A DNA stretch of 32,301 nt, taken from assembly GCA_934771675.1 (NCBI GenBank), contig CAKVMF010000002.1, forward strand, positions 1 through 32,301, in the 5' to 3' direction. The stretch comes from an uncultured Clostridia bacterium. GTDB taxonomy: Bacteria; Bacillota; Clostridia; Christensenellales; UBA1242. The notes below the pieces were generated by a model. That model searched no databases. It had not been told where the DNA came from and saw only the letters and a program-made list of their open reading frames with translations. Made by a program: the position numbers and the translations under genes. Of this stretch, positions 9,751 to 31,023 are shown in pieces; positions within the stretch are counted from its first letter, which is position 1; the number at the start of each line of letters is the position of its first letter.

Positions 9751-9779
9751 ACCAACATCTCCTAATAAAATATGCCAAA

Positions 9780-9808
9780 AGTGTAACACAAAACCCTGCC
9801 GTTGTCAA
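9780..9808 (-). promoter_or_regulatory. SigA-type promoter for lysK
   Basis: On the minus strand: TTGACA, 17-nt spacer, TACACT. About 22 nt of leader contain the RBS. Confidence 0.5.
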
Positions 9809-9900: not shown

Positions 9901-12900
9901 TTAACCCATTTCTCTTCCAGCTGTTGAAGCCATTGAAGTTTTAACCAATGATGAAACACTATCTGGGTTGAAAGCTTTGATATAATCTATCATGCTACCA
10001 CTTGTTCCAGTGTCTAGTGTTTTAAGTGCTTTATCACTGATTTTATTTCCATGGTCAGCAACAAGCTTAACCTTGATTGCTTCATATTCAGCATCAATAG
10101 CGTTTGCAGCTTTTTTCCATTCAACAATGATTGCATCCCATGCTTGTTTGTAAGAAACATTTACAGGATCATTGATAAACGCTTCAATTGGTTGAGAACC
10201 CCTAACTGTGTTGATTTGGTTAAGCAACAAGTTCATATGGCTCTTAAAACCAAGCATTGAAGTTCTTTTAAGTTCAAGAATGTATAAAAGCTTATCATTC
10301 AAACTTTCAACGCTAACATCTCTATCACGAATTTGCTTAAGTTGATTTTTAATTTGCCCAAATACAGATGTATCGCCAACCGCTGAAGCCGTGTCATAAG
10401 AGTTTTTCACATCGGTTGACTTGATTGACAATTTTGAAGCATCATACGAATCAGTTATGCCTGAAATCATTTTAATTCTATTTGCAGGAACTTCCATTGA
10501 GTCATTAAGACTTCTATTGAAGAACAATGCACACATAACTTTCAATTCATCTTCGGTATGATCTTCAAAACCTTTACAAACACTACTTCTAAGTTCAAAT
10601 AATTTTGGACCGTCTTTGTAGTATTTTTGCAATCTTTGGATTCTCTTATCAAGAGTTTTTCCATAAGCAGTTCCCATCTTAATGTAGTTTCTAAAACCAC
10701 CTTTTGGATATTCCTTGTCAAGATAGCCAATAACTTTTTGATCTTCTGGTTTCAAAGTCATCAATGTTTTTTCATATTTCGCAAATTGAATATTTGTTGC
10801 TTTTTCCAAAACATTTCTTTCAAAGTTGTCAATAAGTTTTTCTTTTTGCATTTGAGTAAGATATCTGCTTTGAGTTATCTTTTTGAGTGTTGAAACAAGT
10901 TCAGGAAGAGTCTTGTTTACAGCATCTTCTTCCATTGCTTTAACTTCAAGCCTGATTTTTTCATAAATTTCTTCACCCAAACGAACTGTTAAGTATTCCT
11001 TAAGAGCTGGATCATTTTTAACAGTGTCAATTGTGTCTTTGTAAAGTTTATCAATTTTATTTTCAGAAGCTTTTGGATCTGAAGTTATATCAACTTTTTT
11101 GATTTCTTCAATAAGTTTTGCAATGTTTGGAACTTTTTCACTTCTAACAGCTTTTAAAGCACCTGGCTTAACTTCCAAATCACGTTTCCTTTCAAAACTA
11201 TCAAATTGTTTGAACAATTTATCTTTTAATTCTTTTTTTGCTTGTTTATCTTCAGGAGTATCTTCAGGCAAATTGGCTATTTTCGTTCTTATTTCGGTGA
11301 TTGTGTTAACATTATCATGTTTTTCAGAATCAACATCATTAACTGAAAGATAAAGAGCATCTTCTTCTCTTACATTTGCAATATCTCTTGCAATTGCACG
11401 AATATCTGCTTCTTTTGTTGCGTCTGCTGGAAGTGTGATTCCATTCAAAATTTCAGATTCTGTCATTTTGCAAGCAGCAATTTTCTTTTCTTTCATTGCT
11501 TCAAGATAATTTCTTGCATCATCATTTGCAATTGTTGTTAAATCAAGTGTTTCAAGAGTAGTTCTTGAAGTTGAAGTGCTAATTGTGTTTGCAGCAGCAA
11601 TAACATCAGTTGTTGCATCTGCTCCCATTTCTTTAACACTATTGATAATATCATTTTTGTCAGTTGAAAGTTGTCCAACAACACCAACCTTAAGACCTTC
11701 TTTTAAAGTGTCATTTTCAGAATCTTGTTCAAATTCAATAAAGCTAACATAACTTTTAACTTTTGAACTCAAATCACCAAATTTTGTTGAAGTTGTCAAT
11801 CTCTTTTTAACAACACTAGATTCAAGCATTCTCTTTACTGTTTCCATATTTTCAGCAGAATATGGTTTTTCAAAAACTTCATTATTGAGTGCATCAATAA
11901 GTTGAAGATCTAGAGCATCATATGCTTGCTTGTATTTGATGTTGGCTTCAATTGAATCTTTGAACTTTGTGCCATATTCGTCAAGACGTTCATATGATTG
12001 AATAAGTTCTGTTACAGATCTATCTCTCTTAACTTTGTTTCCGCTTCCATCAACTGTTTCAATTTGTGTGAAGTTCTTTATATCTTTAAGTTCGTCTTCA
12101 ACTTCAAAGTATTCTTTATCTGTTTTAAATACTGTTTTAACTTCATCAGCATTAAGTTTTGAAAGAATAGTTTGGAAACCTTTTTTGTCGTTAATGTCAG
12201 AGCAGAACAAATATTCTTTTCTTGATTTTTCAAAGAATGCTTCACCTTTCAAACCCATTCTGTCACGTTTGCAAGCCATGTTGAAATACTTTTTAAGCCA
12301 TGCATCCTTTCCAACAAATTCACCTTTTTCAATATAAGTTGTAACTGCTTGAGCCATAAATTGCTCATTTCTAATATCTTTTAAACCCTTAACAGTTTTC
12401 CCATTTTTGCCGTCCATAACAGTTCTGTATTGTCCACGGCTCTTTTCAAAATCTTTAATATCGGCAGCTGCCTTCATATAGTCTTTCCAACAATAACCAG
12501 ATTCAAGGGCATTTGCAAGTGTTCTTTTTACACCAAAATATGAAGTTCCTGCTCCGGCAATGACAAGTCCTAGTCTTGCAACTGTTGTTGCAACACCAAG
12601 AGCAGCTGCTGTTGCTGGAAAACATACAGCCAAACCAGCCCCAGCAAGTGCAACTGATCCAATTGTTCTAACTATTCTCCAAGCAAACTTTCCAAACAAA
12701 CTACGTTTTGTTGCTTTTTTGCCGGCAAGTTCATCTTCAGCGGCTTCATATTGTCTATAAAGTGCACCTGAACCGTTTTTGCTTGGGTCAGCATCTTTAA
12801 AGTAAAATGGCTTACCTGAAGATACCTTCTTTCTGGCTTTGTAATCTTCCAACGTTGCATCACGTTTTTGATTCAAAATCAAAGCCATATCGTTGTTTGA

Positions 12901-13260
12901 AGGTCTACCACTAAATTTGCTATAATCATCAGCAACATCAACACCAACTTTTTCAGCCGCATGCGAAATTGCTTGACTGATAATTTTTCTATACTTTGCG
13001 TTGTTTGGATAACCTATGAAATAACTCTTATCAACAGAGTCTTCAATGCCCAAACTCTTCAAAAAGGTCTGATTTGGATCAGCCATTTGTTCAGAAATAT
13101 ACTTATCAATATCCTTATCAGTTCCTGTTCCAGTATAACCATATGTCCTTGGATTCTTTTTGATCTCGTTGAACATATAAACATATGTTGCAAGCACTTG
13201 ATATTCAGATAATTTGAGCTCGTCATCCTTACGCTCTCTATACTTAAATGGTTCTGGCAT
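9901..13260 (-). CDS. hypothetical 1119-aa protein with a Gly/Ala-rich membrane hairpin and a long helical C-terminal region
   Basis: Long uninterrupted ORF with RBS AGAGGTG, own promoter and terminator. Two adjacent hydrophobic Gly/Ala-rich segments (WRIVRTIGSVALAGAGLAVCFPATAAALGVATTVARLGLVIAGAGTSYFGV, about nt 12526-12678). The rest is Lys/Glu-rich, with no enzymatic motif I recognise. Confidence 0.7.
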   Translation of the reverse strand: MPEPFKYRERKDDELKLSEYQVLATYVYMFNEIKKNPRTYGYTGTGTDKDIDKYISEQMADPNQTFLKSLGIEDSVDKSYFIGYPNNAKYRKIISQAISHAAEKVGVDVADDYSKFSGRPSNNDMALILNQKRDATLEDYKARKKVSSGKPFYFKDADPSKNGSGALYRQYEAAEDELAGKKATKRSLFGKFAWRIVRTIGSVALAGAGLAVCFPATAAALGVATTVARLGLVIAGAGTSYFGVKRTLANALESGYCWKDYMKAAADIKDFEKSRGQYRTVMDGKNGKTVKGLKDIRNEQFMAQAVTTYIEKGEFVGKDAWLKKYFNMACKRDRMGLKGEAFFEKSRKEYLFCSDINDKKGFQTILSKLNADEVKTVFKTDKEYFEVEDELKDIKNFTQIETVDGSGNKVKRDRSVTELIQSYERLDEYGTKFKDSIEANIKYKQAYDALDLQLIDALNNEVFEKPYSAENMETVKRMLESSVVKKRLTTSTKFGDLSSKVKSYVSFIEFEQDSENDTLKEGLKVGVVGQLSTDKNDIINSVKEMGADATTDVIAAANTISTSTSRTTLETLDLTTIANDDARNYLEAMKEKKIAACKMTESEILNGITLPADATKEADIRAIARDIANVREEDALYLSVNDVDSEKHDNVNTITEIRTKIANLPEDTPEDKQAKKELKDKLFKQFDSFERKRDLEVKPGALKAVRSEKVPNIAKLIEEIKKVDITSDPKASENKIDKLYKDTIDTVKNDPALKEYLTVRLGEEIYEKIRLEVKAMEEDAVNKTLPELVSTLKKITQSRYLTQMQKEKLIDNFERNVLEKATNIQFAKYEKTLMTLKPEDQKVIGYLDKEYPKGGFRNYIKMGTAYGKTLDKRIQRLQKYYKDGPKLFELRSSVCKGFEDHTEDELKVMCALFFNRSLNDSMEVPANRIKMISGITDSYDASKLSIKSTDVKNSYDTASAVGDTSVFGQIKNQLKQIRDRDVSVESLNDKLLYILELKRTSMLGFKSHMNLLLNQINTVRGSQPIEAFINDPVNVSYKQAWDAIIVEWKKAANAIDAEYEAIKVKLVADHGNKISDKALKTLDTGTSGSMIDYIKAFNPDSVSSLVKTSMASTAGREMG

Positions 13261-13359: not shown

Positions 13360-14625
13360 TTATTTTTGCAATTGATCAATATCTTTTTGGTCTTGTTCAT
13401 CTTGCTTAAAACCTAAGATATCTTTAATATAATCGATTGAATTCAAAAGGTCTTTCTCATCCTTTTCTTTTTCAACCTTTTCTTTTTCTTCAATTGTTTC
13501 TTTCTTTTCTTGTTTTTCTTCTTCAGATTGCTTTACGTTTTCAAATTTTTCATTGAAAGCTTCTTCATCAAACTGTCCTTCAAGATTGATTGCTTCACGA
13601 TTTACAGTTCTGAGATTCTCTTCTTGCTCTTTTGTAAGCTTAACTGGAGCAAATTCTTCATCACTCAAAGCTTTTTCATCAGCTGTTGATTTTGCTGCAA
13701 GTTTTGTTTCAGCATATTCATCTTCAAGTTCACAAAGTTTTTGATAATACTTGTTTGTAGCCTTTAAAATTTCAATGTTGTGCTTAACATCAAAACTTTT
13801 ATTTTTGTCTGAAAGTTCTTCTTGAACAATTTTCAAATCTCTTTTAAGTTTGTCAAACTTTGCTTTAAGTGAAATATCTTCAAACAATGTTTCATCACTA
13901 CGTTTAAAAATCATTTCAGTTGCTTTTTTTAAATGGAAATATTTTTCTTTTGCTCGCATATAAAAATGGTCAAAAATTGCAAACAAAATCAATCCCAAAA
14001 CAATTAGGATTATTCCGCCAATATATTTTCTTTCCCAAACTGGAATAAGTCCACCGATTGCATCAACAACAACATTTTCATAAAGCATTCCAACAACACC
14101 AAATGAAAACACAACAACTGCAAACATCATCAAAATAAAACTAACAATTTTGCTTGTTTTTAATGCTGAAAGTTTATTGTCAGCATTTGTCGCTTCCCTT
14201 TCTCTTGAAAGAGTAAGTTTGTGATATTTTAAATATTCATTTTCAGCTCTGTCAGTGGCTTCATCAACAAAGTTGTAATAATGCTTTTGGGCATTTGCAA
14301 CATCATCAATAGTTGCAAGTCTTTTTTCAGTTGAATCAAGTGAACCAATTTCAAGAGCATAGTTGTAAAGCACCAAAAGTTCGGTTTCAGTTGGAACTGT
14401 TTTAAATCCAAAATCACAATTTTGCATAATTGTTACAAATTGAACCCAATTCAAAAACTCTTTTTTTTCATCAATAAGTTCAAGATGAACTTCGCTCAAA
14501 AATTCATTTGGATTATTCACAATTGTGGTGTAAGCCTGAACAAATTTAGCAACTTCAATATAAAATTTGCTATCTTTAACCATTGATGCGGCAACTTTTT
14601 CACCATTCACATTATTAACTAACAT
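13360..14625 (-). CDS. hypothetical membrane protein (~421 aa) with two TM helices and an acidic coiled-coil tail
   Basis: Start trimmed to Met14 (RBS GGGGGAC 3 nt upstream). TM segments IVSFILMMFAVVVFSFGVVGMLY and IGGIILIVLGLILFAIFDHFY. The C-terminus is Glu/Lys-rich (EEKQEKKETIEEKEKVEKEKDEKD). Confidence 0.65.
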   Translation of the reverse strand: MLVNNVNGEKVAASMVKDSKFYIEVAKFVQAYTTIVNNPNEFLSEVHLELIDEKKEFLNWVQFVTIMQNCDFGFKTVPTETELLVLYNYALEIGSLDSTEKRLATIDDVANAQKHYYNFVDEATDRAENEYLKYHKLTLSREREATNADNKLSALKTSKIVSFILMMFAVVVFSFGVVGMLYENVVVDAIGGLIPVWERKYIGGIILIVLGLILFAIFDHFYMRAKEKYFHLKKATEMIFKRSDETLFEDISLKAKFDKLKRDLKIVQEELSDKNKSFDVKHNIEILKATNKYYQKLCELEDEYAETKLAAKSTADEKALSDEEFAPVKLTKEQEENLRTVNREAINLEGQFDEEAFNEKFENVKQSEEEKQEKKETIEEKEKVEKEKDEKDLLNSIDYIKDILGFKQDEQDQKDIDQLQK

Positions 14626-14883
14626 AAAGTCCCCCAAATCTATCTCAAAATAATAATAACACACTGAAAAAAAATTCGCAAATAATCTACCAAAAAATAT
14701 AAAATAATAAAAATATAAATAAGGTGATTTTTTATAAAGCCAAAATTACCACATAAAAGGAATAGACCCTCACGTCGTGCCACGCACTCCTCAGGGCGAC
14801 ATGCTAATTGATATTGGCTTACTTAAAACCAAAGTGCTCGCTAAATATAAAACAAACTTATCCCCCCCATTCAAAGAAATATG

Positions 14884-20079: not shown

Positions 20080-20643
20080 TCAATCACTAGAAGTAGTTTT
20101 AATAATTGTCACTTCAAAATTTGTTGGTTTTAATGATTTTAAATCGTCATATAACTTTTTAGATATAACAGAAGACTCTCCATCTTTAACCGCAAAATAG
20201 TTGTATTTTGCATCAATATTATCTTTTAAAACCGACCTAAATGATGATACAGCAACACCATAATCAATCATATCAGAAAGATTTCTATCAAGAACATCAA
20301 TCTCAAATTTTGGTCTTAAAATGAAATATGGTTTCAAAATACCATCATCTTTCGCAAAACATTCAAAAAATTGTATCTCATTTGAATATTTTTCATTTAA
20401 CATCTTGAAAATTTTTTCAGAAACAATAATTTCAGCCCAATCGTTTAGCAAAAAATCTGAAATCGGTTCATTATTTTTGTAACTTTTATCTCGTTCAAAA
20501 ATAATTGGAGTTTTTGAAAAACCGTCAAAAGGTTTGCCAAAATTTCTAAACTCTCTTATTTCAGCATATGGCTCATAATCATTTAAAAAATTACCATATT
20601 TTTTTGCACAATTTGTTAACGACCTTATTTCATAATAATTCAT
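20080..20643 (-). CDS. putative orphan immunity protein (187 aa), possibly DUF1629/Imm11-like
   Basis: Start trimmed to MNYYEIRS (RBS AAGGAA). It is the last gene of the immunity array. The segment ISDFLLNDWAEIIVSEKIFKMLNE resembles my recollection of DUF1629-type immunity proteins; this assignment is not verified. Confidence 0.5.
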   Translation of the reverse strand: MNYYEIRSLTNCAKKYGNFLNDYEPYAEIREFRNFGKPFDGFSKTPIIFERDKSYKNNEPISDFLLNDWAEIIVSEKIFKMLNEKYSNEIQFFECFAKDDGILKPYFILRPKFEIDVLDRNLSDMIDYGVAVSSFRSVLKDNIDAKYNYFAVKDGESSVISKKLYDDLKSLKPTNFEVTIIKTTSSD

Positions 20644-20653
20644 AAATATTTCC

Positions 20654-21097
20654 TTACAACTTTGAATATCTTGCATCAAGTTCTTCCAAATCTTTAATAT
20701 CTTCCCACTTGATTTTTATTGTGGCAAGCAAGTCTTCAATTAATTTTTCTCCGTTAAAATCGCCTTTCTTTTTCGCGTCCACAATCTTTATTGCATCTAC
20801 AAGCATTTTTACATAAAGCAGCAATCTTCCGTTTTCATCTGCTTTTACAAATTTATCGTAGTCCATTATAAGCCTAATGTCTGCATCTTTAGATTTTGGT
20901 CTAACCAGCCTTCTTTCTTTCCAATCTTCATCTAAAAACTCATCTTCCATTATTGTCGGAATTATACTTATAAGTTCAAACTCCAAGCCATAATTGTTTT
21001 TACAAAGTTTGTTCAAAATAGGTTCTAGAAATGAATAAATTTTATTCGTTTTATTTCCAACACCTATTGATTCTTCTGATGAAATACAAATCTTCAT
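20654..21097 (-). CDS. putative immunity protein, paralog B of the 22644-23129 gene (147 aa)
   Basis: RBS AGGAGAAG. The C-terminal two-thirds is a near-copy of the other paralog, including 67 identical residues (DWKERRLVRPKSKDADIRLIMDYDKF...GEKLIEDLLA). Confidence 0.65.
   Translation of the reverse strand: MKICISSEESIGVGNKTNKIYSFLEPILNKLCKNNYGLEFELISIIPTIMEDEFLDEDWKERRLVRPKSKDADIRLIMDYDKFVKADENGRLLLYVKMLVDAIKIVDAKKKGDFNGEKLIEDLLATIKIKWEDIKDLEELDARYSKL
20727..20927. repeat. 201-bp tract 100% identical to 22756-22956
   Basis: Base-by-base comparison at a constant offset of 2029 nt. The first mismatches are at 20726/22755 and 20928/22957. Confidence 0.9.
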
Positions 21098-21105
21098 AAC
21101 TTCTC

Positions 21106-21837
21106 CTATTTTTCATTAAAATCCACTGCTGGGAAAACTGTTTTTATAAGACTATTTACTTTTGAGAGCCTTTTTTGATATGTTTCCATATCTGGATTTT
21201 TTCCAGCGGTAAAATCTTTTGTTGGCTTGAATATCTTTTCATCAATAACTCTTTCAATATCTCTATTGTTTCCACCAACAATTTTATCTAAAACAGTGTC
21301 AATAATAAGTGATTTTTGAACCTTGTATTCATAGTTTTTATTTGGAACTATTTCATATAATCCGTCGTAAAGTTTTGCAACAGTATCAAATAAACTGTCT
21401 TGCAATAAAAATGTTACTTTTCCACCATAAATCAAGTCTTGAGAATCATTTTCCATGATTTTCAAAATCATAGATTTAACGTCTTTGTAGCCATTTGAAA
21501 TTTCATCACGACTTTCAACAGCCAATTGTTCAACCAACTCATTTTTATAAATAAATTCAGGAACTGGTCTGCCATATTGCTTCAATAAATTAACCTTTTC
21601 TTGCACACTTTTTTCAAATTCTTCATTTAAAAATTTTACTTCTGCAAAAACAGGCTTTGAATATTCATCAAAAAATTCTTGTAATTGCTTATCATTTAAG
21701 CTATTGATTTTGTTTTGAAGCATTTCGCAAACATCATTAAAGTTATCTTGAAAGTTCGCAATAAATTCATCAAAATCTATCTTTCCCACAACAAAATCAT
21801 AAATCATTTTTTGATAATCTATTTTTCTATTTTTCAT
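21106..21837 (-). CDS. hypothetical 243-aa protein in the immunity array
   Basis: Clean ORF between a cassette terminator and the next gene; its stop overlaps the RBS of the downstream gene. No recognisable motif. Confidence 0.55.
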   Translation of the reverse strand: MKNRKIDYQKMIYDFVVGKIDFDEFIANFQDNFNDVCEMLQNKINSLNDKQLQEFFDEYSKPVFAEVKFLNEEFEKSVQEKVNLLKQYGRPVPEFIYKNELVEQLAVESRDEISNGYKDVKSMILKIMENDSQDLIYGGKVTFLLQDSLFDTVAKLYDGLYEIVPNKNYEYKVQKSLIIDTVLDKIVGGNNRDIERVIDEKIFKPTKDFTAGKNPDMETYQKRLSKVNSLIKTVFPAVDFNEK

Positions 21838-21843
21838 ATATTT

Positions 21844-21872
21844 ATTTTAACAAACTCAAAATTTTTTGTCCA
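21844..21872 (-). promoter_or_regulatory. candidate promoter for the 243-aa gene cassette
   Basis: On the minus strand: TGGACA, 17-nt spacer, TAAAAT. Only 6 nt separate it from the ATG and there is no RBS. Confidence 0.35.
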
Positions 21873-21875
21873 CAC

Positions 21876-21905
21876 AAAAATAGCAGGCAATGCCTGCTAT
21901 TTTTT
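21876..21905 (-). terminator. conserved palindromic terminator, copy 1 (after SUKH paralog B)
   Basis: AAAAATAGCAGGCAATGCCTGCTATTTTT; the T-run follows on the minus strand; it overlaps the stop at 21904. Confidence 0.7.
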
Positions 21906-22560
21906 AACCTTTTTGATTTGTTTTTGTTGAATCTTCTTCTGGAACTGTCCAAGTTATATCACCCCAAAACGCATTTGATATAGCTGGGTATTTTTTGCAC
22001 CATTTATCTTTATTTGGATGTTTTCTATACCCCTTTTCATCATATTCTGGAACGAGATATTTAAAGTAGTATTTCATAACATCTTCAATTGAATCAAACT
22101 CTTTTGAAGGAACTATTGTGCCATTTTTTGCCAAATAAATCTTTGGACGCATCAATTCAGATTGTTTGTAATACATTTCATACTCACCAACTCCACCAAA
22201 AAACACAATATCATCCAAAGTTTCCTTTGTTACCTTTTTGTCCTTAATTTCACCATGTTTGTTGATATCGTTTAAATAAAATTCCATTGGACTTGATTTT
22301 CCAACTCCAATACCATAAATATTTATTGATGAAAGAAATAATCTGCAACCATTGTAATTTTTATAAAATTCCTTAAGTTCAGGAAGCAATCTAATATTGT
22401 ATTGCTGCTCAAAATTATCATAATAGCTTATGTCAATTTTTTTGCATAAAGTATGAAGATATGTTTCATCTGAAATTTCTTTCATAACAACATAAATCTT
22501 TCCTTCTTCATTATCTTTTTCAAGCTTCCATTTTGTTTCAATCAATTCGTCTAAATACAT
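21904..22560 (-). CDS. SUKH-1 (SMI1/KNR4) family immunity protein, paralog B (218 aa)
   Basis: Motif LPELKEFYKNYNGCRLF is typical of SMI1/KNR4 (SUKH) proteins. It is roughly half identical by eye to the toxin-adjacent paralog. RBS AGGAAG. Confidence 0.75.
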   Translation of the reverse strand: MYLDELIETKWKLEKDNEEGKIYVVMKEISDETYLHTLCKKIDISYYDNFEQQYNIRLLPELKEFYKNYNGCRLFLSSINIYGIGVGKSSPMEFYLNDINKHGEIKDKKVTKETLDDIVFFGGVGEYEMYYKQSELMRPKIYLAKNGTIVPSKEFDSIEDVMKYYFKYLVPEYDEKGYRKHPNKDKWCKKYPAISNAFWGDITWTVPEEDSTKTNQKG

Positions 22561-22586
22561 TTTTTACTTCCTATTACTACATTTCC

Positions 22587-22614
22587 ATTTTAACAAAATT
22601 AAACTATTTATCAA
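22587..22614 (-). promoter_or_regulatory. candidate promoter for SUKH paralog B
   Basis: On the minus strand: TTGATA, 16-nt spacer, TAAAAT. Confidence 0.4.
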
Positions 22615-22616
22615 AC

Positions 22617-22645
22617 AAAAATAGCAGGCAATGCCTGCTATTTTT
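22617..22645 (-). terminator. conserved palindromic terminator, copy 2
   Basis: Same AATAGCAGGCAATGCCTGCTATT palindrome plus T-run; abuts the stop of the 161-aa gene. Confidence 0.7.
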
Positions 22646-23129
22646 ATCTCTGTTTTGCTAAATCATTATTTTCTTTTGCTGTTCTACTAAGTGGGTATCT
22701 TGGATCTAATTCATCCAAATCTTTTATTTCGTCCCACTTTATGTTTGTTGCAGCTAGCAAGTCTTCAATTAATTTTTCTCCGTTAAAATCGCCTTTCTTT
22801 TTCGCGTCCACAATCTTTATTGCATCTACAAGCATTTTTACATAAAGCAGCAATCTTCCGTTTTCATCTGCTTTTACAAATTTATCGTAGTCCATTATAA
22901 GCCTAATGTCTGCATCTTTAGATTTTGGTCTAACCAGCCTTCTTTCTTTCCAATCTGGACCCAAATATTTTTCTTCTTTTATTGTTGGAATAATGCTTAT
23001 ATCTTGAAATTCTTCACCATAGTTATTATTTTTTGTTAAATTATTGAATATCATTTTAAAATTATTCCACAAATACATAATTGAATTATCAATATCTCCA
23101 GAATATTCAAAAGACAATGTTATATCCAT
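22644..23129 (-). CDS. putative immunity protein, paralog A (161 aa)
   Basis: RBS AAAGGGGAA; own promoter and terminator; paralog of 20654-21097. Confidence 0.65.
   Translation of the reverse strand: MDITLSFEYSGDIDNSIMYLWNNFKMIFNNLTKNNNYGEEFQDISIIPTIKEEKYLGPDWKERRLVRPKSKDADIRLIMDYDKFVKADENGRLLLYVKMLVDAIKIVDAKKKGDFNGEKLIEDLLAATNIKWDEIKDLDELDPRYPLSRTAKENNDLAKQR
22756..22956. repeat. 201-bp tract 100% identical to 20727-20927
   Basis: See the partner copy. The flanks fall to an estimated 75-80% identity. Confidence 0.9.
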
Positions 23130-23207: not shown

Positions 23208-23236
23208 TAAAATAGCAGGCATTGCCTGCTATTTTT
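23208..23236 (-). terminator. conserved palindromic terminator, copy 3 (ends the toxin operon)
   Basis: AATAGCAGGCATTGCCTGCTATT plus T-run. It differs from copies 1 and 2 only at the central base. Confidence 0.7.
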
Positions 23237-23882
23237 AATCCTTTTGAATTGATTTTGACAAATCATCTTCTGGAACCGTCCAATCTATATCACCATTAAA
23301 TGAATTTTTTTCTAAAGGAAATTTTCTACACCATTTTTCATTTATTGGATGTTTTCTATAACCTTTTTCATCATATTCAAATGATAATGCTTTAATATAA
23401 AATGACAAAAGTTCTTTTATAGAATAAAATTCTTTATGAACTGTTAATTCACCATGATTTGAAAGGTATAATTTTGGTGATTTTATTTCACTTTGTTTAT
23501 AATAAATCAAATAATCTCCAACATTTCCAATATAAACAATATCTTTACCATCAAAGCCATTATTATTTAGTTTTGTATGAAGATTTATGTTATTTAAAAC
23601 CATACACATTGGTTCAGATTTTTCGACATCAAAACCATAAATATTTATCGATGAATGAAATAACCTACATCCATTAAAATTTTTGTAAAATTCTTTAAGC
23701 TCTGGCAATAATACGATGCCATTTTCTTGTTCATATTTGTTTGCATAGTTAATATCAATTTTTTTATATAGTCTATGTAAATATACATCATCGTCAATTT
23801 CAGGCATTGCACAAAACAACAATCCCTCTTCATTATTTTGGTCAACCTTCCATTTATTCTTTAACAATTCATCTAAATACAT
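23235..23882 (-). CDS. SUKH-1 (SMI1/KNR4) family immunity protein, presumed cognate of the upstream toxin (215 aa)
   Basis: LPELKEFYKNFNGCRLF motif. It starts 10 nt after the toxin stop, whose TAA is embedded in the RBS (TAAGGAG). Confidence 0.8.
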   Translation of the reverse strand: MYLDELLKNKWKVDQNNEEGLLFCAMPEIDDDVYLHRLYKKIDINYANKYEQENGIVLLPELKEFYKNFNGCRLFHSSINIYGFDVEKSEPMCMVLNNINLHTKLNNNGFDGKDIVYIGNVGDYLIYYKQSEIKSPKLYLSNHGELTVHKEFYSIKELLSFYIKALSFEYDEKGYRKHPINEKWCRKFPLEKNSFNGDIDWTVPEDDLSKSIQKD

Positions 23883-23892
23883 TTTTTTCTCC

Positions 23893-26085
23893 TTATAATC
23901 CCAATTTAGTCAATTTATCTACAACCCATGGCAATAATTCCTTTACCTTAGCCAAATCAGTAGCATTTTTCCATGAACCACCATGAACATATAAATGTTG
24001 TTGTCTTGTTAAAAATACAATATTATCAGGATTTCCAATCAAATCCAAATTTCCCATACTTCTGCTCACATCTTTTAAATGACAACCTTGGTAACCTTTT
24101 ACTTTACCATACTTTAAAATTTGTTGTCTTTCAGATGCCGTCCATGTGTATTTTGATTTTTTATTCAATACAGCTTTTTGTTCATTTTTCCAAGCATCTC
24201 TTACAGCTTTTTGTCTAGCATTTCTAATTTCACTTTTTGATGGATTTTTTGCAGCATTATTTGATGAATTTGTTCCTTTTTTTGCATTTGATTTGGTTGA
24301 TTTTGAACAAGCATTGTGAACTAAAACGTTATCATTTCCAACATAATATGTGTGGAATGATTCATCATTTTCGTCACCTACTGTAAAGTTGTAAACATCA
24401 ATTGGTTCATCAAGTTTTTGTCTGTGAACACCTAATATTTTAACACTTTCTCCATTTTCTGTCAATAATGTATCACCAGATGCAAGTTCATATGCAGGAA
24501 CCCAACCTCTGCTTTCAACATACCATGGATGAAGTGATGTTGATGTGATAGTTTTTCCAGTGCTAAGAGCAACTGAACAAATATCATCTGAAGTGCTTCT
24601 CATTATGTTTGTAACAGCAACAGCTGAAACCATTGCAGTTGCTTCGTCATAACTTAACACTTTTTCACCAACAGTAACGTCTTGAATATTTTTAAGACCA
24701 CTTTCAGTTAAAACCTTTGTATCTTCAACAAAGCACGCCTTAACAAGTCCGCTGCCAACCATAACAGCACTCATAATTGCAGACATCATGAATGATTTTG
24801 CAATATTTTCTGGTTCAAGAGTACTTTTTGCAGCATCTCTAAGTGCTTCACCAAAACTTTTTCCTTGAATAACTCCTGTTATTGTTGAAACAGTTGTTTG
24901 AATTGCAAGGTCTGTAATAACTGCAACAGCTGTCATTTTTGTTATTAATAACAATGATGCTCCGAAAGACGCTCCCCCACAAAGTGGTGCAAGTGCCGCT
25001 CCAATAAGCATTGCAGCAAGACCAATAGCAGCAAACAAACCAACCTTTAACCAGTTTGTTGTTTTTGTTTTGATTAAATCAGCTTTCTTTACCCCACCAT
25101 CAGCGGTAAATTCAAGTGTTGTGTCAGCACCGAATGTTTCGTTGAGCGAATCTAAATCATATCCAAAGAATGAGTCTTTGCTAGACAAATTTTGCCATTC
25201 ATTGATTAAATCATAATCAATAATTGTGATTGTTATTTCGCTAACATAGTAACCATTCTTTTCTTGTTCAGCATTGATTTCATCAATCTTTGCTTGAATG
25301 CTGTCATAATCAATATCAGAAAACATTGCTTTTACTTCAACTGAAGTGTAAGTAAAATCATTTTCATAAATGTATTTGCATTCATCATATGAGAATAATT
25401 GACCTAATTTAGTATCATAATTTTCAGTATTGTTATCTTGAATACTATATTTTACAGTTCTTTCATTAACCCATCTATATGCAACATATTTATCATAATA
25501 AACAAAGTGACCATCACTTCTTTCAATTGCATAGTTAGAGATAATGTATCTATATCCATCATCTTCACCATTGTTAAATGAAATCAAATTTTCTGTGTTT
25601 GAAATTACAGTATCATCTTTAACAACACCGATAAATCCACCATTCATATAAGTTTCATTAATTTCTTCATATTCGGTGTAAGTCAATCCAAAATAAATTG
25701 TATCATTGTCTAAATTCAATGCTTTTGATTCAAAAACTTCAAATCCTTGGTTATTTAATTCATAGCAAAGAGAATTATACAACAATGATAAAATTTGAAA
25801 TTCAATAAATTCTTCTTCTGTTAAATCATCTGGAGTTTCTCCATTTGAAGCACTACTGAGCACGCTGTCGTGCTTTTGTTGTTCATCAATAAGTGATGAA
25901 TCATAAACTTTTACTTTGTAATTGGTGTCAGGTGTTGCTGGCGTTGCAGCGACTGTTCTATTGTAATCGCAATTTTGTTTATCAATATCAGCCGAATATG
26001 GCTTAATCAAAACAATATTGAGCGCACAAACAACACTTAAAATAAATGACAAAACATATTTTGAAATATTTTTTAAAGTTTTCAT
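23893..26085 (-). CDS. secreted polymorphic toxin: signal peptide, unknown NTD, TM block, Hint domain, HNH/EndoVII-like C-terminal toxin (730 aa)
   Basis: N-terminal signal peptide (cleavage probably after YSA). Hint hallmarks: ACFVEDTKVL...LVHNAC. C-terminal H...N...H...HGG nuclease-like pattern. An immunity gene follows immediately. Confidence 0.8.
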   Translation of the reverse strand: MKTLKNISKYVLSFILSVVCALNIVLIKPYSADIDKQNCDYNRTVAATPATPDTNYKVKVYDSSLIDEQQKHDSVLSSASNGETPDDLTEEEFIEFQILSLLYNSLCYELNNQGFEVFESKALNLDNDTIYFGLTYTEYEEINETYMNGGFIGVVKDDTVISNTENLISFNNGEDDGYRYIISNYAIERSDGHFVYYDKYVAYRWVNERTVKYSIQDNNTENYDTKLGQLFSYDECKYIYENDFTYTSVEVKAMFSDIDYDSIQAKIDEINAEQEKNGYYVSEITITIIDYDLINEWQNLSSKDSFFGYDLDSLNETFGADTTLEFTADGGVKKADLIKTKTTNWLKVGLFAAIGLAAMLIGAALAPLCGGASFGASLLLITKMTAVAVITDLAIQTTVSTITGVIQGKSFGEALRDAAKSTLEPENIAKSFMMSAIMSAVMVGSGLVKACFVEDTKVLTESGLKNIQDVTVGEKVLSYDEATAMVSAVAVTNIMRSTSDDICSVALSTGKTITSTSLHPWYVESRGWVPAYELASGDTLLTENGESVKILGVHRQKLDEPIDVYNFTVGDENDESFHTYYVGNDNVLVHNACSKSTKSNAKKGTNSSNNAAKNPSKSEIRNARQKAVRDAWKNEQKAVLNKKSKYTWTASERQQILKYGKVKGYQGCHLKDVSRSMGNLDLIGNPDNIVFLTRQQHLYVHGGSWKNATDLAKVKELLPWVVDKLTKLGL
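23896..24306 (-). other. C-terminal toxin module (residues 594-730), HNH/Endonuclease VII-fold-like
   Basis: GYQGCHLKDV...GNPDNIVFLTRQQHLYVHGGSW resembles the [x]HH...N...L...H...HxGG pattern of the AHH/LHH/WHH/GHH nuclease toxin families, but with CHL instead of xHH. The Lys-rich linker is typical. Confidence 0.55.
24307..24735 (-). other. Hint (Hedgehog/intein-like) pre-toxin autoprocessing domain, residues 451-593
   Basis: Begins with Cys (A-CFVEDTKVLTESG), ends with VLVHN-AC. ~143 aa, with no homing-endonuclease insert. Confidence 0.75.
24736..25059 (-). other. Gly/Ala-rich hydrophobic block (residues 343-450), about 3-4 predicted TM helices
   Basis: WLKVGLFAAIGLAAMLIGAALAPLCGGASFGASLLLITKMTAVAVITDLAIQ...FMMSAIMSAVMVGSGLV. 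Confidence 0.6.
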
Positions 26086-26097
26086 TTTTGTTCCCCC

Positions 26098-28452
26098 TTA
26101 ACCATTAAATGTGTTTGCACTTGAAGAAACGCCTTTGCCACTGATTAATGCAGTAAGTTTTGCATTAACATCCATAACTTTTGCAAGAGCACTTGAAACA
26201 CTTGTTTCTTTTTCAGAAAGTGTGTTGACAACAAAGCTGAAAATATTTCCGCTTCTGTCAATCATTGAAACAAGATAGTTTGCTCCTGAAAGAGTTAAGT
26301 TTTTAACATCTTCATAATTTTTAAGTTCAAGAGTTTTTGTTGTTAAATTGAAAATAGCAACAACTCCCTCACTGTCAAGTTCGTTTGCAATAGCACTAAA
26401 CTTAACATTTGTTCCGTTGATGATTTGATAGTTTGAATTGTTAACATCAACAACTGTTCCATCAACATCAAGTGATACAACTGTTTCATTTGTGTTTTCA
26501 TAGCAAATTGTGTAAGTTACGCTTTCATTATAAGCATTTGTTTCTGTGATTTCATATCTTCCAGATTTGCTTAACATTTTTGAAAGTTTTGTGTTGTATG
26601 CAAGATTAATAATTTCGCCAGTTGCAACATTTTTTGCAACAATGGTCTTGCTTTCATAATCTCCAACTTTAACAAATTTAAAGTTGCCATCAATAATGTC
26701 ATTTTGAGCAAGCATCTTTCCAAGTTCAAGAGCTGTTGTCATGTAAACATCTCTGTCAAAATTGAGTTCTTCAACTTTGATTGTGCTTGAAAGCATCTCT
26801 TCATTAACATAAAAATCTGTTAATCCTTTGATGAAATATTGCTCTGTAACTTTTGTTTTAACAACTTCGTTCATTGCATTTGTGAGAGCGATGTCTGTTG
26901 TGTAAGTCACACCATTATAAACATATGCTCCCTTTGAACCTGAAACGTATTTCTTTTCAAGCTCAAAAGCAAATTGATAAGCCAAGTATTTGCTGTCTTT
27001 GTCAAAGCAAATATGTGCAATTTTGCCACTTGGCATTGTGTAAGCGACTTCAAGATGTTTTGTTTCATAGTCGCTCATAACAAGGTTTCCTGTGATGTTT
27101 GTAAGGTTGATGCTTGGTGCACTTGATTCATTTGAAACAATGAATGCAAAATCGTAATGATAAGTTGTGCCTGCAAGTTTTTCATCACCATTAACAAGTG
27201 AAACCATATAAACGCCTTCTTGATTTAATGTGAAGGTTTGTGCTGACTCTGAAGGGTCAACTGTTGTAACAAAACCTGTTGAATTGTTTTTAATTGTTCC
27301 CCTGAGTGCTGGAACATATGAACCTGCACCATTCAAACGAAGTTTAACACCAACTTGATATGTTGGGAGTGCTTGGCTCAAATCTGCAATTCTTTGACCT
27401 TCAAAAATTGAATTTCCAAAGTATGTTGCAAATCCTTTGTCATACTCTCCGCCTTTGAAAACATAAACTGAACGTTTTGCTTCATCGCCGAATAAACTTT
27501 TAACAGAAACTTCATACTTTCCGTCATCAGTAAATTCCATACCATCGCAAATGTTTTCAATCTTGTTTCCATCCTTTTTCACTTCAACAGTGTAACTTTT
27601 GTTTCCAAGATAATTCATTTGGAACCCTTGAGTTGTAACAGATCCATCTTGCAAATTATCTCCTTTTTTGATCAAATCAATTTGAGATTCTTCGTTGCTG
27701 TAAGATGAATAATCTTTTTCAACCAAATCCAAAAGTTGGATGTCACAAGTATTTCTTCCTATAAAGATTTGGTAAGTTTCCAAACAGTTCTTATATTCTG
27801 TTTTCCTTTCCTTTCTTTTAAATATCCACCAACCACGTGTTTCCCACCACTCTCTATAAATTTCATATGCCACTGAAATATTATAGTAACAGCCTTGGTT
27901 GATATCTTCACCATTGACGGAAGTGTAGTCAAATGATGAATTACTATTAAACACGTTACCGCTTCTAATTAAGGTTGTCCAATTACTTTCTGAAAGATTT
28001 TTCTTTTGAACAATAATTGCACCTTTGCCAATGCTAGATCCGTTGAGTGAAATGCCATTTACAGAAGTAGCTGAATCGCTGCTAAGATTCCAAACGCTAC
28101 TATTGATACCAGACTTGTTGTAGTTAAGTTTGTAAGTAAATGAAATTTGTTCACTTGGATCGCTTGAATAGGCTTTTGCACCACCATAGGTTCCCTGGTC
28201 TCTAACCCCAGCTACACTAAGTGAGCCTATTGAACTTGCCCCAAAGGACATGCTGTTCGCCTGCGCTTTTGATGGATAGTATCCAACGTTGTCCGCCATT
28301 TGATATGTTCCACTTGATGGAACAGTGTAGGTTTGTGCACTTGCCTTGTCTGCTTTGTTTCCGCCAAAGTTAACAATACTAAAAATTGAAACAAGAAGCA
28401 CAAAAACCAATGAAAATGGCACTATTCTTTTAAATATACTATTCCTTTTCAT
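26098..28452 (-). CDS. secreted 784-aa protein of unknown function (beta-rich, Asn/Ser/Thr-rich)
   Basis: Signal peptide MKRNSIFKRIVPFSLVFVLLVSIFSIVNFGGNKADKASA|Q. The stop lies 12 nt before the toxin ATG, with a GGGGGA RBS in between. No LPXTG and no motif I recognise. Confidence 0.75.
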   Translation of the reverse strand: MKRNSIFKRIVPFSLVFVLLVSIFSIVNFGGNKADKASAQTYTVPSSGTYQMADNVGYYPSKAQANSMSFGASSIGSLSVAGVRDQGTYGGAKAYSSDPSEQISFTYKLNYNKSGINSSVWNLSSDSATSVNGISLNGSSIGKGAIIVQKKNLSESNWTTLIRSGNVFNSNSSFDYTSVNGEDINQGCYYNISVAYEIYREWWETRGWWIFKRKERKTEYKNCLETYQIFIGRNTCDIQLLDLVEKDYSSYSNEESQIDLIKKGDNLQDGSVTTQGFQMNYLGNKSYTVEVKKDGNKIENICDGMEFTDDGKYEVSVKSLFGDEAKRSVYVFKGGEYDKGFATYFGNSIFEGQRIADLSQALPTYQVGVKLRLNGAGSYVPALRGTIKNNSTGFVTTVDPSESAQTFTLNQEGVYMVSLVNGDEKLAGTTYHYDFAFIVSNESSAPSINLTNITGNLVMSDYETKHLEVAYTMPSGKIAHICFDKDSKYLAYQFAFELEKKYVSGSKGAYVYNGVTYTTDIALTNAMNEVVKTKVTEQYFIKGLTDFYVNEEMLSSTIKVEELNFDRDVYMTTALELGKMLAQNDIIDGNFKFVKVGDYESKTIVAKNVATGEIINLAYNTKLSKMLSKSGRYEITETNAYNESVTYTICYENTNETVVSLDVDGTVVDVNNSNYQIINGTNVKFSAIANELDSEGVVAIFNLTTKTLELKNYEDVKNLTLSGANYLVSMIDRSGNIFSFVVNTLSEKETSVSSALAKVMDVNAKLTALISGKGVSSSANTFNG

Positions 28453-28526: not shown

Positions 28527-30776
28527 CTATGCATTTTTGAATTTTATTTTATCAATGCTTGAAACATTAAATATCAAAATAATTTGTGAGTCATCATCAC
28601 GCACTTTGCCATAAACCATGCCGTATGAGTAGTAACAATTCTGGCAAAACTCACTTCTAGTCATATCTATCTCAATTTGAAGCAATGATGAGCAATCTTT
28701 AAATGGCTGATAGCCAAAATCACTAACATTCGCTCCAATGTAAACATTCTGTAAATTTTCACAGCCCGAAAAAGCATAATAGCCGATTTCTTCAACCGAA
28801 TCAGGCAACGAAATTTGAATTAAACTTTTGCAACCCTGAAACGCATTCATATCAATAACCAAAATGCTGTTTGAAAGAGTTACATTTGCGAGCTTTTTGC
28901 AATTTGAAAACATACTTGAACTTAAAACTTCAATATTTGAATTTATCACAGCTGTTTCCAAGTTTAAGCAATTTTCAAAAGCACCTTCACCAATACTGGC
29001 GCAACTTGCTGGTGTTTCAATTTCTTTTAAAGCTTGACAATCATAAAATGCCGATTTTCCAATTTTCTCTAAATTGACACCAAGTGTAATTGTTTCAAGA
29101 GCCAAGCAGCCAGCAAAACACCTGTCACCTATTATTTTAAGACCTTCCAAACCAGAAACATTTGTAAGCACCTTACACTCGAAAAATGCACATGTTCCAA
29201 TTTTTTCAACAACCGTTGGAAGAGAAATCTGCTTAATCACTTCATTAAACGCAAATGCATAACTTCCTATGCTTAAAACTTCTATACCTTCAATTTCAGC
29301 TGGAATAGAAACTGATTCATTTGTGTTTTTGCACTTGATAACTCTTGCCTTGCCATCAATTATTCTGAAAACAAAGTCATCATTTTCAAGCGTGCGATAT
29401 TCTTCACCATCAAACATAAGCGAACTGTCATCAACATAATTGAATACTTTTGAAACTTCTTCAATAGTTCCAAAAACCTTTCCTTGTGATGTTGTGCTTT
29501 GACTTAAAAACTCATCTTTTTTGCACGCAAAATTAACTTCAACAATGTTGAAGCATTTTTCAAAACAACTGTCGTAAAGCATTATTGCTTTTTGTTTTAA
29601 AGCAATGTTTTTCAAGCTTTTACAGTTTGCAAACGCATATTGATAAATTTTTGATGTGTTTTTTAAATCAACAATTTGCAAATTTTCAAGCCCGTTAAAA
29701 GCATATTCAAAAATTGATGTTACATTTTCACCAATGCATATTGTTTCAATTTTTGTACATCCGTCAAATGCATGTGCTGGAATTTCAGATAGGTTTTCAC
29801 CAAGTGAAATTGTTTTCAAACTTCTGCAGTTTGAAAATGCACTCTCACCTATCTCACTCGCACTTGCAAGATTTATATTTTCAAGAGCATAACAATTTAA
29901 AAATGCCTTGCTTTTAATTTTTGTTACATTCCCAGCAAAACTTGCAGCTGTTAAATTGCTGCAATTTGCAAAAGTCTCTTCTTCAATTGCAGTTATATTT
30001 GCTGGCAAAGATATTTCCTTTAAACCTGTCAAATAAAAAGCTCTTGCTCCAACACTTTTTATAGTGTTTGGAAGTTTAATCTCTCCTAGGTTTAAACAAC
30101 TCTCAAATGTTGCTCGTTTAATTTCTTCAATTCCACTTGGAATGTTTATTGAATTTAATCTTTTGCAACCAAAAAAACTTTTTTCACCAATTGAAGTTAT
30201 CGTGTTTGGAAGAACAATCTTTTCAATAGTTCCATTGTTTTCAAACAAATTATCTTTAATTTCAGTTACACCTTCAAGAACTTCAACGGTTATTGCTGTG
30301 TCTAAAATATGCGAAGAATCAACCATTGATTTGTTTTCCAAAACCGAACCAATTTTAACATTTTTTATTGCATCGCATTTTCTAAAAGAATTTTTCCCAA
30401 GAGATGTTATTGAACTTGGCAAAACAACACTTTGAAGATTTGAGCAATTATAAAAAGCCTGTTCCCCAATAACTTCATAACCTTCAGGAACAATGATATT
30501 TTTTATATCGAAATTATTTTTAAAACAATATGTGTCAATACCTTTGATTGCAATACCGTCAATAGTTTTTGGAAATTCAACAGTCACATCTGTTAATATC
30601 GCACCATTGATAACAGCCCTTTCACCATCCATTTTGTAAGAAAAAGTGGTTATTAAAGGCAGGTCCTTGTTGCCATCATCTGAACCAGAACCAGTATTGT
30701 CGTTTGATTTACATCCTATGAAAACAAGCACACAAATTAAAGCAATAATTGAAAAAATAATCTTTTTTAGTTTCAT
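28527..30776 (-). CDS. BspA-type leucine-rich-repeat (LRR_5-like) lipoprotein, 749 aa
   Basis: Lipoprotein signal MKLKKIIFSIIALICVLVFIG|C. There are more than 20 degenerate ~23-aa repeats of the form I.IP..VTSIGE.AF..C..L..I.L. RBS AAAGGAGAG. Confidence 0.8.
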   Translation of the reverse strand: MKLKKIIFSIIALICVLVFIGCKSNDNTGSGSDDGNKDLPLITTFSYKMDGERAVINGAILTDVTVEFPKTIDGIAIKGIDTYCFKNNFDIKNIIVPEGYEVIGEQAFYNCSNLQSVVLPSSITSLGKNSFRKCDAIKNVKIGSVLENKSMVDSSHILDTAITVEVLEGVTEIKDNLFENNGTIEKIVLPNTITSIGEKSFFGCKRLNSINIPSGIEEIKRATFESCLNLGEIKLPNTIKSVGARAFYLTGLKEISLPANITAIEEETFANCSNLTAASFAGNVTKIKSKAFLNCYALENINLASASEIGESAFSNCRSLKTISLGENLSEIPAHAFDGCTKIETICIGENVTSIFEYAFNGLENLQIVDLKNTSKIYQYAFANCKSLKNIALKQKAIMLYDSCFEKCFNIVEVNFACKKDEFLSQSTTSQGKVFGTIEEVSKVFNYVDDSSLMFDGEEYRTLENDDFVFRIIDGKARVIKCKNTNESVSIPAEIEGIEVLSIGSYAFAFNEVIKQISLPTVVEKIGTCAFFECKVLTNVSGLEGLKIIGDRCFAGCLALETITLGVNLEKIGKSAFYDCQALKEIETPASCASIGEGAFENCLNLETAVINSNIEVLSSSMFSNCKKLANVTLSNSILVIDMNAFQGCKSLIQISLPDSVEEIGYYAFSGCENLQNVYIGANVSDFGYQPFKDCSSLLQIEIDMTRSEFCQNCYYSYGMVYGKVRDDDSQIILIFNVSSIDKIKFKNA

Positions 30777-30993: not shown

Positions 30994-31023
30994 TTGACGC
31001 ACCAAGCATCATGGTGATATACT
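30994..31023 (+). promoter_or_regulatory. candidate promoter for tRNA-Arg and the PAP2 gene
   Basis: TTGACG, 18-nt spacer, TATACT, with TG at the extended -10 position; ~75 nt upstream of the tRNA. Confidence 0.4.

Follow-up and report, generated by a model that had tools for sequence, protein, structure and literature searches.

A polymorphic toxin locus of Clostridia with a putative trafficking half of orphan fold and a conserved upstream partner gene

We analyzed a stretch of 32,301 nucleotides (the window; positions 1 to 32,301 of contig CAKVMF010000002.1, assembly GCA_934771675.1) from an uncultured bacterium of the Christensenellales, class Clostridia, and in particular the toxin gene on its minus strand at positions 23893..26085, which encodes 730 residues from an ATG start. 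The product is probably a subunit of an interbacterial polymorphic toxin system, the core of which would be a two-gene module formed by an exported partner and the toxin, followed by immunity genes. From the N- to the C-terminus, the toxin consists of a signal or anchor, an ectodomain of ~310 residues (the N-domain), a Gly/Ala-rich helical block of 108 residues, a PT-HINT domain and a Tox-GHH nuclease.

A first-pass annotation made from the sequence alone had described an open reading frame (ORF) of 730 codons at 23893-26085, and all the sequence features it listed were found where it had placed them. The start codon has a GGGGG Shine-Dalgarno sequence 7 nt before it, and the stop codon of the upstream gene lies 12 nt away. 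The N-terminal signal peptide or uncleaved signal anchor (residues 1-30; 25996..26085, minus strand) has a hydrophobic core at residues 9-27; the signal had been called cleavable-looking, and although the hydrophobic segment is present, there is no clean AxA site and cleavage is uncertain. The N-domain (residues 31-342; 25060..25995, minus strand) gave no match in Pfam, NCBIfam, PADLOC, PHROGs or the PDB sequences, in agreement with the earlier remark that some 300 residues belonged to no recognizable family. The block that follows it (residues 343-450; 24736..25059, minus strand) contains 17.6% alanine, 12% leucine and 10.2% glycine, and has three hydrophobic peaks, as expected for the Gly/Ala-rich hydrophobic block described before. 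The absence of known Gram-positive trafficking modules was also confirmed: LXG, WXG, RHS, MuF and PT-TG domains were undetected with Pfam and NCBIfam. [quoted passage not shown]

The PT-HINT domain, or A-type bacterial intein-like (BIL) domain, occupies residues 451-593 (24307..24735, minus strand), from C451 to H590-N591/A592-C593. The Pfam profile PT-HINT (PF07591) matches residues 458-592 with an E-value of 1.2e-22 (81.1 bits, cut-off 27.7), and the 19 close relatives show no variation at C451, H519, H590, N591 or C593, T516..H519 being the block-B TxxH motif and H590-N591 the C-terminal His-Asn; the Hint domain traced earlier from Cys451 to VHN-AC has its catalytic residues in place. The nearest solved structure is the BIL domain of C. 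thermocellum (PDB 2LWY), matched by sequence with E 1.6e-17 and by the full-length toxin model in Foldseek with E 1.5e-13, a TM-score of 0.87 and 36% identity; all the Foldseek matches of this model were HINT and intein structures. Like the A-type BIL domains (2LWY; PMC7765530), the HINT domain of the toxin combines Cys1 and TxxH with a C-terminal His-Asn that no +1 nucleophile follows, and sits in the hypervariable region of a secreted bacterial protein; there is no difference between them at the level of the domain. A-type BIL domains cleave at either end (PMC7765530, reviewing Amitai 2003 and Dassa 2004), and by analogy autocleavage at the N- or C-terminus of the HINT domain would be expected here.

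The C-terminal residues 594-730 (23896..24306, minus strand) form an exchangeable cassette made up of a Lys-rich linker and a nuclease of the HNH/EndoVII type. The nuclease-like module noted in the first reading is matched by Pfam Tox-GHH (PF15636; HNH superfamily) over residues 620-692 (window 24010-24228) with E 1.3e-14 (54.3 bits, cut-off 25), and the isolated C-terminus scores 57.9 bits. Its only relatives in the PDB are teneurin C-terminal GHH domains. Since the profile matches are strong and the ORF is long, the PT-HINT and Tox-GHH assignments do not reflect chance patterns. The fragment expected on release (residues 592-730, 139 aa) would consist of the linker and the nuclease, and nothing else. 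The toxin end of the protein is, in short, ordinary.

Membership of a polymorphic toxin system in the sense of Zhang et al. 2012 is supported by the variation among relatives. A search with toxin residues 1-450 returned only 19 proteins among 5.8 billion, conserved through LVHNAC and then split into four C-terminal types: Tox-GHH, AHH (PF14412), and types A and B. Pfam gave no assignment for the latter two, apart from a weak DUF2380 match for type B, and the impression that type A is GIY-YIG-like was gained by eye only. Pairs of alleles (including, with P numbers for individual proteins, P0001/P0002 and P0004/5/6) are 92-100% identical up to LVHNAC outside a second cassette at residues 89-215, and 14-34% identical beyond it. 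A survey of homologues for variable C-termini after the VHN junction, as suggested in the first-pass annotation, thus found the C-terminus to be polymorphic right after the conserved VHNAC. The DNA of a sister strain (locus L001) is collinear with the window from position 31000 down to 24302, with the breakpoint two codons past C593. In this comparison the GHH cassette (24301-23897) is present in the window only, and homology picks up again at the SUKH gene; at the same place L001 carries a type-A toxin and Imm44, and it retains an identical copy of the SUKH gene as an orphan.

The SUKH/SMI1_KNR4 gene (215 aa; 23235..23882, minus strand) starts 10 nt past the toxin stop. Its product reaches 24.3 bits for SMI1_KNR4, just under the cut-off of 25.4, and 21.4 bits for SUKH_6 (Pfam). 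However, it is 55% identical to its paralogue encoded at 21904-22560, which is itself above the cut-off at 30.5 bits, and by this transitivity it is very likely a SUKH member. Homologues of the gene come after GHH toxins in L009 (60% identity) and L008 (31%), so that the pairing of a GHH toxin with a downstream SUKH gene is seen in three loci including the window; this supports the predicted role of the SUKH gene as cognate immunity of the GHH toxin, which had been proposed before. The other toxin types have different followers: the AHH toxin of L003 is followed by a 206-aa protein that is 69% identical to the product of window ORF 20080-20679, the type A toxin of L001 by Imm44, and the type B toxin of L007 by a protein of a 146/243-aa family related to the product of window ORF 21106-21837.

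Beyond the SUKH gene, the window contains a five-gene orphan immunity array (20080..23129), all on the minus strand. Two of its genes are Imm44 genes (22644-23129 and 20654-21097; Pfam E 2.5e-13 and 3.3e-14), which are 66-76% identical to the gene after the type-A toxin of L001, and a third is the SUKH paralogue (21904-22560; Pfam E 6e-7). The remaining two, a 243-aa ORF (21106-21837), 30% identical to the gene after the type-B orphan toxin of L007, and a 199-aa ORF (20080-20679), the one related to the follower of the AHH toxin, have no match in Pfam, NCBIfam, PADLOC or PHROGs. Because toxin and immunity types co-occur across loci, the six genes downstream of the toxin can be read as one cognate and five orphan immunity genes that would together cover all four toxin types of the clade. 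No orphan toxin C-terminus was found in the window. A terminator scan identified three perfect palindromes of 27-29 bp (AAAATAGCAGGCAaTGCCTGCTATTTT; direct-repeat family D2) at 23209-23235, 22617-22645 and 21876-21904, which come after three successive immunity genes and are each followed by a TG-extended promoter-like site on the minus strand (23196-23168, 22614-22587 and 21872-21844). The palindromes are terminator-like and, given that the order of the immunity cassettes is shuffled with respect to L001, they may also mark recombination or cassette boundaries.

Two observations on related loci concern the same region. L007 (5704-7394) carries an orphan cassette, P0019 (291 aa), whose Met start lies inside the helical block and which contains half of that block, HINT and a type-B toxin; it is preceded by an Imm44 gene, the contig shows no full-length toxin gene upstream of it, and it is a possible reservoir for replacement of the C-terminus via recombination in the conserved block and HINT sequence. 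L003 (12738-15221) and L009 (12826-15333) have, after the immunity gene, a gene for a fused ABC_tran and FtsX (MacB-like) protein of 827-835 aa that the window lacks, and which could be an accessory exporter, a resistance pump or unrelated.

The second gene of the proposed core, the partner gene (26098..28452, minus strand), ends 12 nt before the toxin start and encodes a secreted protein of 784 aa. The protein had no match in Pfam, NCBIfam, PADLOC or PHROGs, a sequence search of the PDB gave none at E≤10, and hhalign detected no homology between it and the N-terminal half of the toxin. Several lines of evidence connect the two genes. Firstly, partner homologues of 45-97% identity are no more frequent than members of the close toxin clade, with which they share their contigs. 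Secondly, remote homologues (20-25% identity, 1230-1340 aa) are found directly before toxin-family genes in L011, L012 and L041, those of L011 and L012 being 24% identical and ~1260 aa long. Thirdly, a metagenome scan seeded with the remote clade gave 28 loci, of which 22 include upstream DNA; in ~20 of these the gene immediately upstream of the toxin, in the same orientation, encodes a partner homologue of 1230-1340 aa, and the two genes often overlap. Finally, at least nine representative clusters (1860-2340 aa) are head-to-tail partner-toxin fusions. The long partners have a signal peptide, an ectodomain of ~1200 aa, one C-terminal transmembrane (TM) segment and a basic tail, and the partner of the window clade has no C-terminal anchor.

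The trafficking half of the toxin is also shared far beyond the close clade. An exhaustive profile search, made with residues 1-455 of 11 members and with clustering at 50% identity, matched the N-domain and the TM block together in 402 clusters with a threshold of E≤1e-3 and in 188 with E≤1e-10. When sub-hidden Markov models were mapped on the best 150, practically every full-length member had the hydrophobic helices after its N-domain. For 66 representatives of this superfamily, a Pfam census identified PT-HINT in 25, Tox-GHH in 11, WHH in nine, Colicin-DNase in five, EndoU and LHH in two each, and Endonuclease_NS_2 in one; the toxins of the superfamily further include Tox-REase-9 and AHH. 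Because many nuclease types are carried and HINT is present in 25 of the 66 only, the N-domain and TM block would constitute a general pre-toxin or trafficking module for nuclease toxins, with HINT as an optional insert. The position of the TM block directly before HINT, singled out in the first-pass annotation as unusual, does not lie at the heart of the system, since HINT is dispensable in the wider family. There is no model of the N-domain in Pfam (66 relatives) or NCBIfam (23 relatives). An AlphaFold2 model of toxin residues 50-450, built from an alignment of 110 sequences, has a predicted local distance difference test (pLDDT) score of 85.8, and a Foldseek search with it gave no match in the PDB or BFVD at E≤1e-3.

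With respect to distribution, the close clade was found in genome contigs of only two metagenome-assembled genomes, one from Christensenellales and one from an uncultured member of the Clostridia. The N-domain had no tblastn match in plasmids, and when a remote toxin was used against plasmids only its C-terminal toxin matched, to HINT toxins of Streptomyces. A cultured carrier of the remote form is Fusibacillus kribbianus (Lachnospiraceae; assembly GCA_030053595.1), in which a 1262-aa partner and a 760-aa lipoprotein toxin are followed by a gene for 111 aa. In its locus, L041 (JASGBQ010000027.1, 1-19789), the module is part of an island that also encodes a set of type III-like restriction-modification proteins (N6_N4_Mtase and ResIII/RE_endonuc), a WYL protein and an integrase, and L011 belongs to an element, integrative or mobilisable, that carries integrases and MobL. 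Upstream of the partner, L011 (8100-9672) and L012 (4824-6466) encode a 284-318-aa protein and a DUF4230 protein that are absent from the other 26 remote loci. One partner homologue, P0175 (768 aa), is named 'nucleoside-triphosphatase THEP1' by JGI; this looks like a mis-annotation, because domain searches give no support for THEP1.

Conservation in the toxin is highest in the TM block, with a mean column entropy of 0.53 versus 0.76 for HINT. In alignment A2 (11 sequences), G355, G362, P367, G370, G371, S373, F374 and K383 do not vary at all and D392 hardly varies. In the model, the helices of the block have pLDDT scores of ~90: TM1 (345-368) is joined by a tight turn, PLxGGxSF, to TM2 (374-406), after which come two further helices, one amphipathic (411-422) and one of weak hydrophobicity (425-444). 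The biological-hydrophobicity sums are -1.1 for residues 348-366 in TM1, +2.7 for residues 372-390 in TM2 and +4.0 for residues 435-453 in the last helix, and for this reason we favour a two-TM hairpin joined by the PLxGGxSF turn, with the last helix probably interfacial. The N-domain is extracytoplasmic, because a lipoprotein signal (LxGC) takes the place of the toxin's signal in at least 80 of the 137 stand-alone relatives; the window toxin itself has no lipobox. The fusions point in the same direction. In these proteins a second TM segment, following a basic loop, takes the position of the toxin's signal, and the resulting order (partner ectodomain, TM, RRRKK-rich loop, TM, N-domain, two TM peaks, HINT) makes sense only with the N-domain and the HINT-toxin part both outside.

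Alternatively, the block could cross the membrane three times, which would leave HINT and the nuclease in the producer cytoplasm, where SUKH holds them in check; the ectodomain and the partner would then act as a sensor or export gate, with export triggered by a signal or an inward release for suicide or kin policing. The hydrophobic peaks at residues 348, 372 and 435 are compatible with this topology, but the sum of +4.0 argues against insertion of the third helix on its own, and fusion protein P0075 has exactly two TM peaks from the N-domain to HINT. Likewise, a Lys-rich stretch before TM1 would fit the positive-inside rule if it were cytoplasmic, but the lipoprotein signals place the N-domain, and hence this stretch, outside. 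Signal peptides are absent from SUKH and from the remaining immunity proteins, as expected for neutralisation in the cytoplasm; on the other hand, a five-gene orphan immunity array is a signature of toxins arriving from neighbours and not of self-directed release. Taken together, we regard the three-TM topology as very unlikely. With the two-TM hairpin, a role of the block as an anchor is well supported, and its extreme conservation at most suggests an additional role as a translocation conduit. The invariant Gly, Pro and Lys residues and the near-invariant Asp inside the helices suggest more than a passive anchor would need.

The first gene of the operon (28527..30776, minus strand) encodes a BspA-type leucine-rich repeat (LRR) lipoprotein of 749 aa (Pfam LRR_5, E 2.8e-126), the signal of which contains a lipobox-like motif, ...LVFIGC; a promoter-like site (TTGACA-17-TAAACT, 30854-30826) lies ~50 nt upstream of it. 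The gene is kept upstream of the partner in L001, L003 and L009, so that the complete LRR-partner-toxin trio is present in these loci too. In L003, which has a different genomic neighbourhood, the N-terminal half of the toxin is 54%, the partner 46% and the LRR protein 36% identical to the proteins of the window. In the remote clade the LRR protein was not found, apart from a partial match in L038, and it appears to be a clade-specific accessory. The protein also matches PHROGs families of unknown function strongly (phrog_35892, E 4e-81; phrog_18805, E 3e-69), and these matches indicate that LRR_5 proteins of this kind occur in phage genomes as well.

In addition to its C-terminus, the toxin has a second polymorphic cassette, identified by comparison of alleles, in its ectodomain (residues 89-215; 25441..25821, minus strand). 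In the pairs P0004/5/6, P0001/2, P0007/15 and P0010/11 this region is only 27-61% identical, whereas the same alleles reach 92-100% identity in the conserved segments that run from residue 216 through HINT, and 78-100% over residues 31-88. In the model the cassette is beta-rich with high pLDDT. By analogy with the receptor-binding region of CdiA, residues 89-215 are probably a subdomain for target recognition. Co-variation of the cassette with the partner or the LRR protein was considered and ruled out, since the two upstream proteins are 94-100% and 84-100% identical between the window and L001.

Based on these data, we propose the following sequence of events. The toxin would be exported by Sec, as a lipoprotein in most relatives and by means of a signal peptide or signal anchor in the case of the window protein, which would place the ectodomain of ~310 residues outside the cell. 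The two-helix hairpin (345-406) would tether the toxin in the producer membrane, with HINT and the nuclease hence also outside. The partner may form a surface complex with the toxin, joined in the clade of the window by the LRR lipoprotein, and residues 89-215 would probably recognise the target. Cleavage by the A-type BIL/HINT domain at N591 (by Asn cyclisation), at A450/C451, or at both, would free the 139-aa GHH nuclease, which would enter a neighbouring cell, the Gly/Ala helices possibly assisting in the crossing of the target membrane, and degrade nucleic acid there unless the matching SUKH protein is made. It is possible, although we would not call it probable, that the partner and the toxin amount to a dedicated delivery system of Clostridia and, for Gram-positive gut anaerobes, a functional counterpart of contact-dependent inhibition (CDI), in which a complex of two membrane-tethered surface proteins has a swappable recognition cassette, the helices carry the nuclease across the target membrane and HINT is optional.

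Several points weigh against these proposals. A tethered 730-aa protein would have to reach across the Gram-positive wall, and the nuclease would then have to cross the target membrane. The helix at 425-444 may be membrane-spanning, in which case HINT and the toxin would end up in the cytoplasm. Most relatives are devoid of HINT, so release by HINT would not be general. As for the partner, the divergent relative P0018 (L008) has none upstream, no partner is present in the 704 bp of upstream DNA of L025, L039 has a gap of 2.9 kb, and some of the partner-toxin fusions could in principle be errors of assembly or gene calling.

Other routes of delivery have to be considered as well. The toxin might be an ordinary Sec-secreted, diffusible, bacteriocin-like toxin, with the block as a transient stop-transfer anchor, a nuclease freed by HINT, and upstream proteins that are unrelated, co-transcribed adhesins. 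The combination of signal peptide, HINT and toxin is a listed Sec-dependent architecture (PMC3482391), two TM helices with HINT were read in this way in 2011 (PMC3113570), and fragment 592-730 contains the linker and nuclease only. We nevertheless consider this unlikely. The partner remains adjacent at 20-25% identity in differing contexts and has been fused to the toxin repeatedly; the TM block is the most conserved region and has conserved polar positions; most relatives lack HINT, and thus an obvious release step; and a 139-aa nuclease with no entry domain would hardly cross a membrane unaided. If the toxin were diffusible after all, it would be one more Sec/HINT nuclease toxin, of modest significance. 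Delivery by membrane vesicles or membrane fusion, with the anchored toxin and partner leaving on vesicles that dock via the variable ectodomain, seems improbable to us: the toxins of most relatives are doubly anchored, by lipobox and TM hairpin, and the long partners have a C-terminal TM segment and a basic tail, but in the clade of the window the partner has no C-terminal anchor and the toxin no lipobox. An anti-phage defence function or phage origin was rejected because there were no meaningful PADLOC or PHROGs matches.

To our knowledge, little has been learned about how Gram-positive bacteria that do not use a T7SS bring cytoplasm-acting toxins into their neighbours, and outside LXG/T7SS, WapA and the recently found umbrella particles we know of no delivery mechanism for most Sec-type polymorphic toxins. 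The locus defines a large family (at least 400 clusters at 50% identity), found in metagenomes from the gut and elsewhere, whose trafficking half and partner have no Pfam or NCBIfam model and whose N-domain has no structural relative (Foldseek, PDB and BFVD). The natural partner-toxin fusions, the second cassette that may set the target range and the cultured carrier Fusibacillus kribbianus offer experimental handles, and the system might account for antagonism between strains of gut Clostridia and provide new modules with which to deliver proteins to chosen targets.

Elsewhere in the window, a class I lysyl-tRNA synthetase is encoded at 8176-9789 on the minus strand (tRNA-synt_1f, E 2e-109), the less common type in bacteria. 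Two ORFs of 1119 and 434 aa lie between lysS and secA (9901-13260 and 13360-14664, both on the minus strand) and have no Pfam match at E≤0.001.

How much of the system is new can be judged against the literature. The first-pass annotation had regarded the delivery logic as undescribed. For the bare architecture this does not hold, because Zhang, Iyer and Aravind briefly noted in 2011 (PMC3113570; example Clostridium thermocellum gi 125974537) Firmicute proteins in which a two-TM domain precedes HINT and a nuclease, and the combination of a Sec signal with HINT is among the routes listed by Zhang et al. 2012 (PMC3482391). A survey from 2026 again points to PT-HINT toxins whose N-terminal ~300 aa are unannotated and whose delivery is unknown (PMC13483458). 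What stands of the claim is the trafficking half with its ectodomain, the partner, the partner-toxin fusions and the second cassette, which are undescribed in the family libraries and the literature that we searched. The first-pass annotation had missed the partner gene with its natural fusions, the extent of the N-domain superfamily, the cassette at residues 89-215, the array of orphan immunity genes, and the topology indicated by fusions, lipoboxes and hydrophobicity. The Firmicute toxins of 2011 resemble the window toxin in their two TM helices, HINT, C-terminal nuclease and adjoining SUKH-type immunity genes, and also in their predicted Sec-dependent targeting to the membrane and HINT-mediated release at the cell surface; TM1 and TM2 are likened here to the published description of the 2TM domain. 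The TM pair was named in that work as the trafficking element, with no mention of an ectodomain of ~310 aa, a leader, a partner gene or HINT-less relatives.

The functionally closest analogues appear to be MafA/MafB, CdiA, the Umb particles and the prePAAR effectors, although none of their defining domains is present. In the MafA/MafB/MafI systems of pathogenic Neisseria (PMC4287609, PMC3482391), as in the window, a gene for a surface (lipo)protein is followed by the toxin gene, and then by immunity genes and orphan cassettes; MafB toxins combine a signal peptide and a conserved N-domain with a polymorphic C-terminus, and some of them contain a BIL/HINT domain. The window toxin, in contrast, has no DUF1020 match, has a TM hairpin and belongs to a Gram-positive host of the Clostridia, and its partner (784-1340 aa in the family) is not MafA. 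The Streptomyces umbrella toxins UmbA/B/C (PDB 8W20; PMC11062931) are likewise Sec- or Tat-exported, multi-protein polymorphic toxins of Gram-positive bacteria with adjacent partner genes, and UmbC has HINT before its variable C-terminus (window HINT versus residues 1083-1221 of 8W20, E 9.6e-12). However, only HINT aligns, there are no ALF repeats, coiled-coil stalk, lectin or trypsin-like partners in the window, and Umb is soluble whereas the window protein has TM helices.

In work on Tse6, built-in helices were reportedly proposed to insert in the target membrane and carry the toxin across. The prePAAR/Rhs effectors of type VI secretion systems (T6SSs) share with the window toxin hydrophobic helices built into a nuclease-type effector (2TM domain in PMC3113570). 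On the other hand, the window system has no PAAR, Rhs or T6SS, and its helices lie in the middle of a Sec-exported protein instead of at the N-terminus of a cytoplasmic, chaperone-bound effector.

Finally, CdiA/CdiB differs from the window system in its TPS domain, FHA repeats and CdiB, none of which is present in the window, whose host is presumably a monoderm given its Clostridia lineage and whose toxin would be anchored by its own TM hairpin. Yet in both systems two cassettes can be exchanged independently of each other, namely a central receptor-binding region (a candidate one in the case of the window toxin) and a C-terminal toxin following a short conserved motif (VENN in CdiA, VHNAC here), and in both an immunity gene lies directly downstream of the toxin, accompanied by displaced orphan immunity genes.

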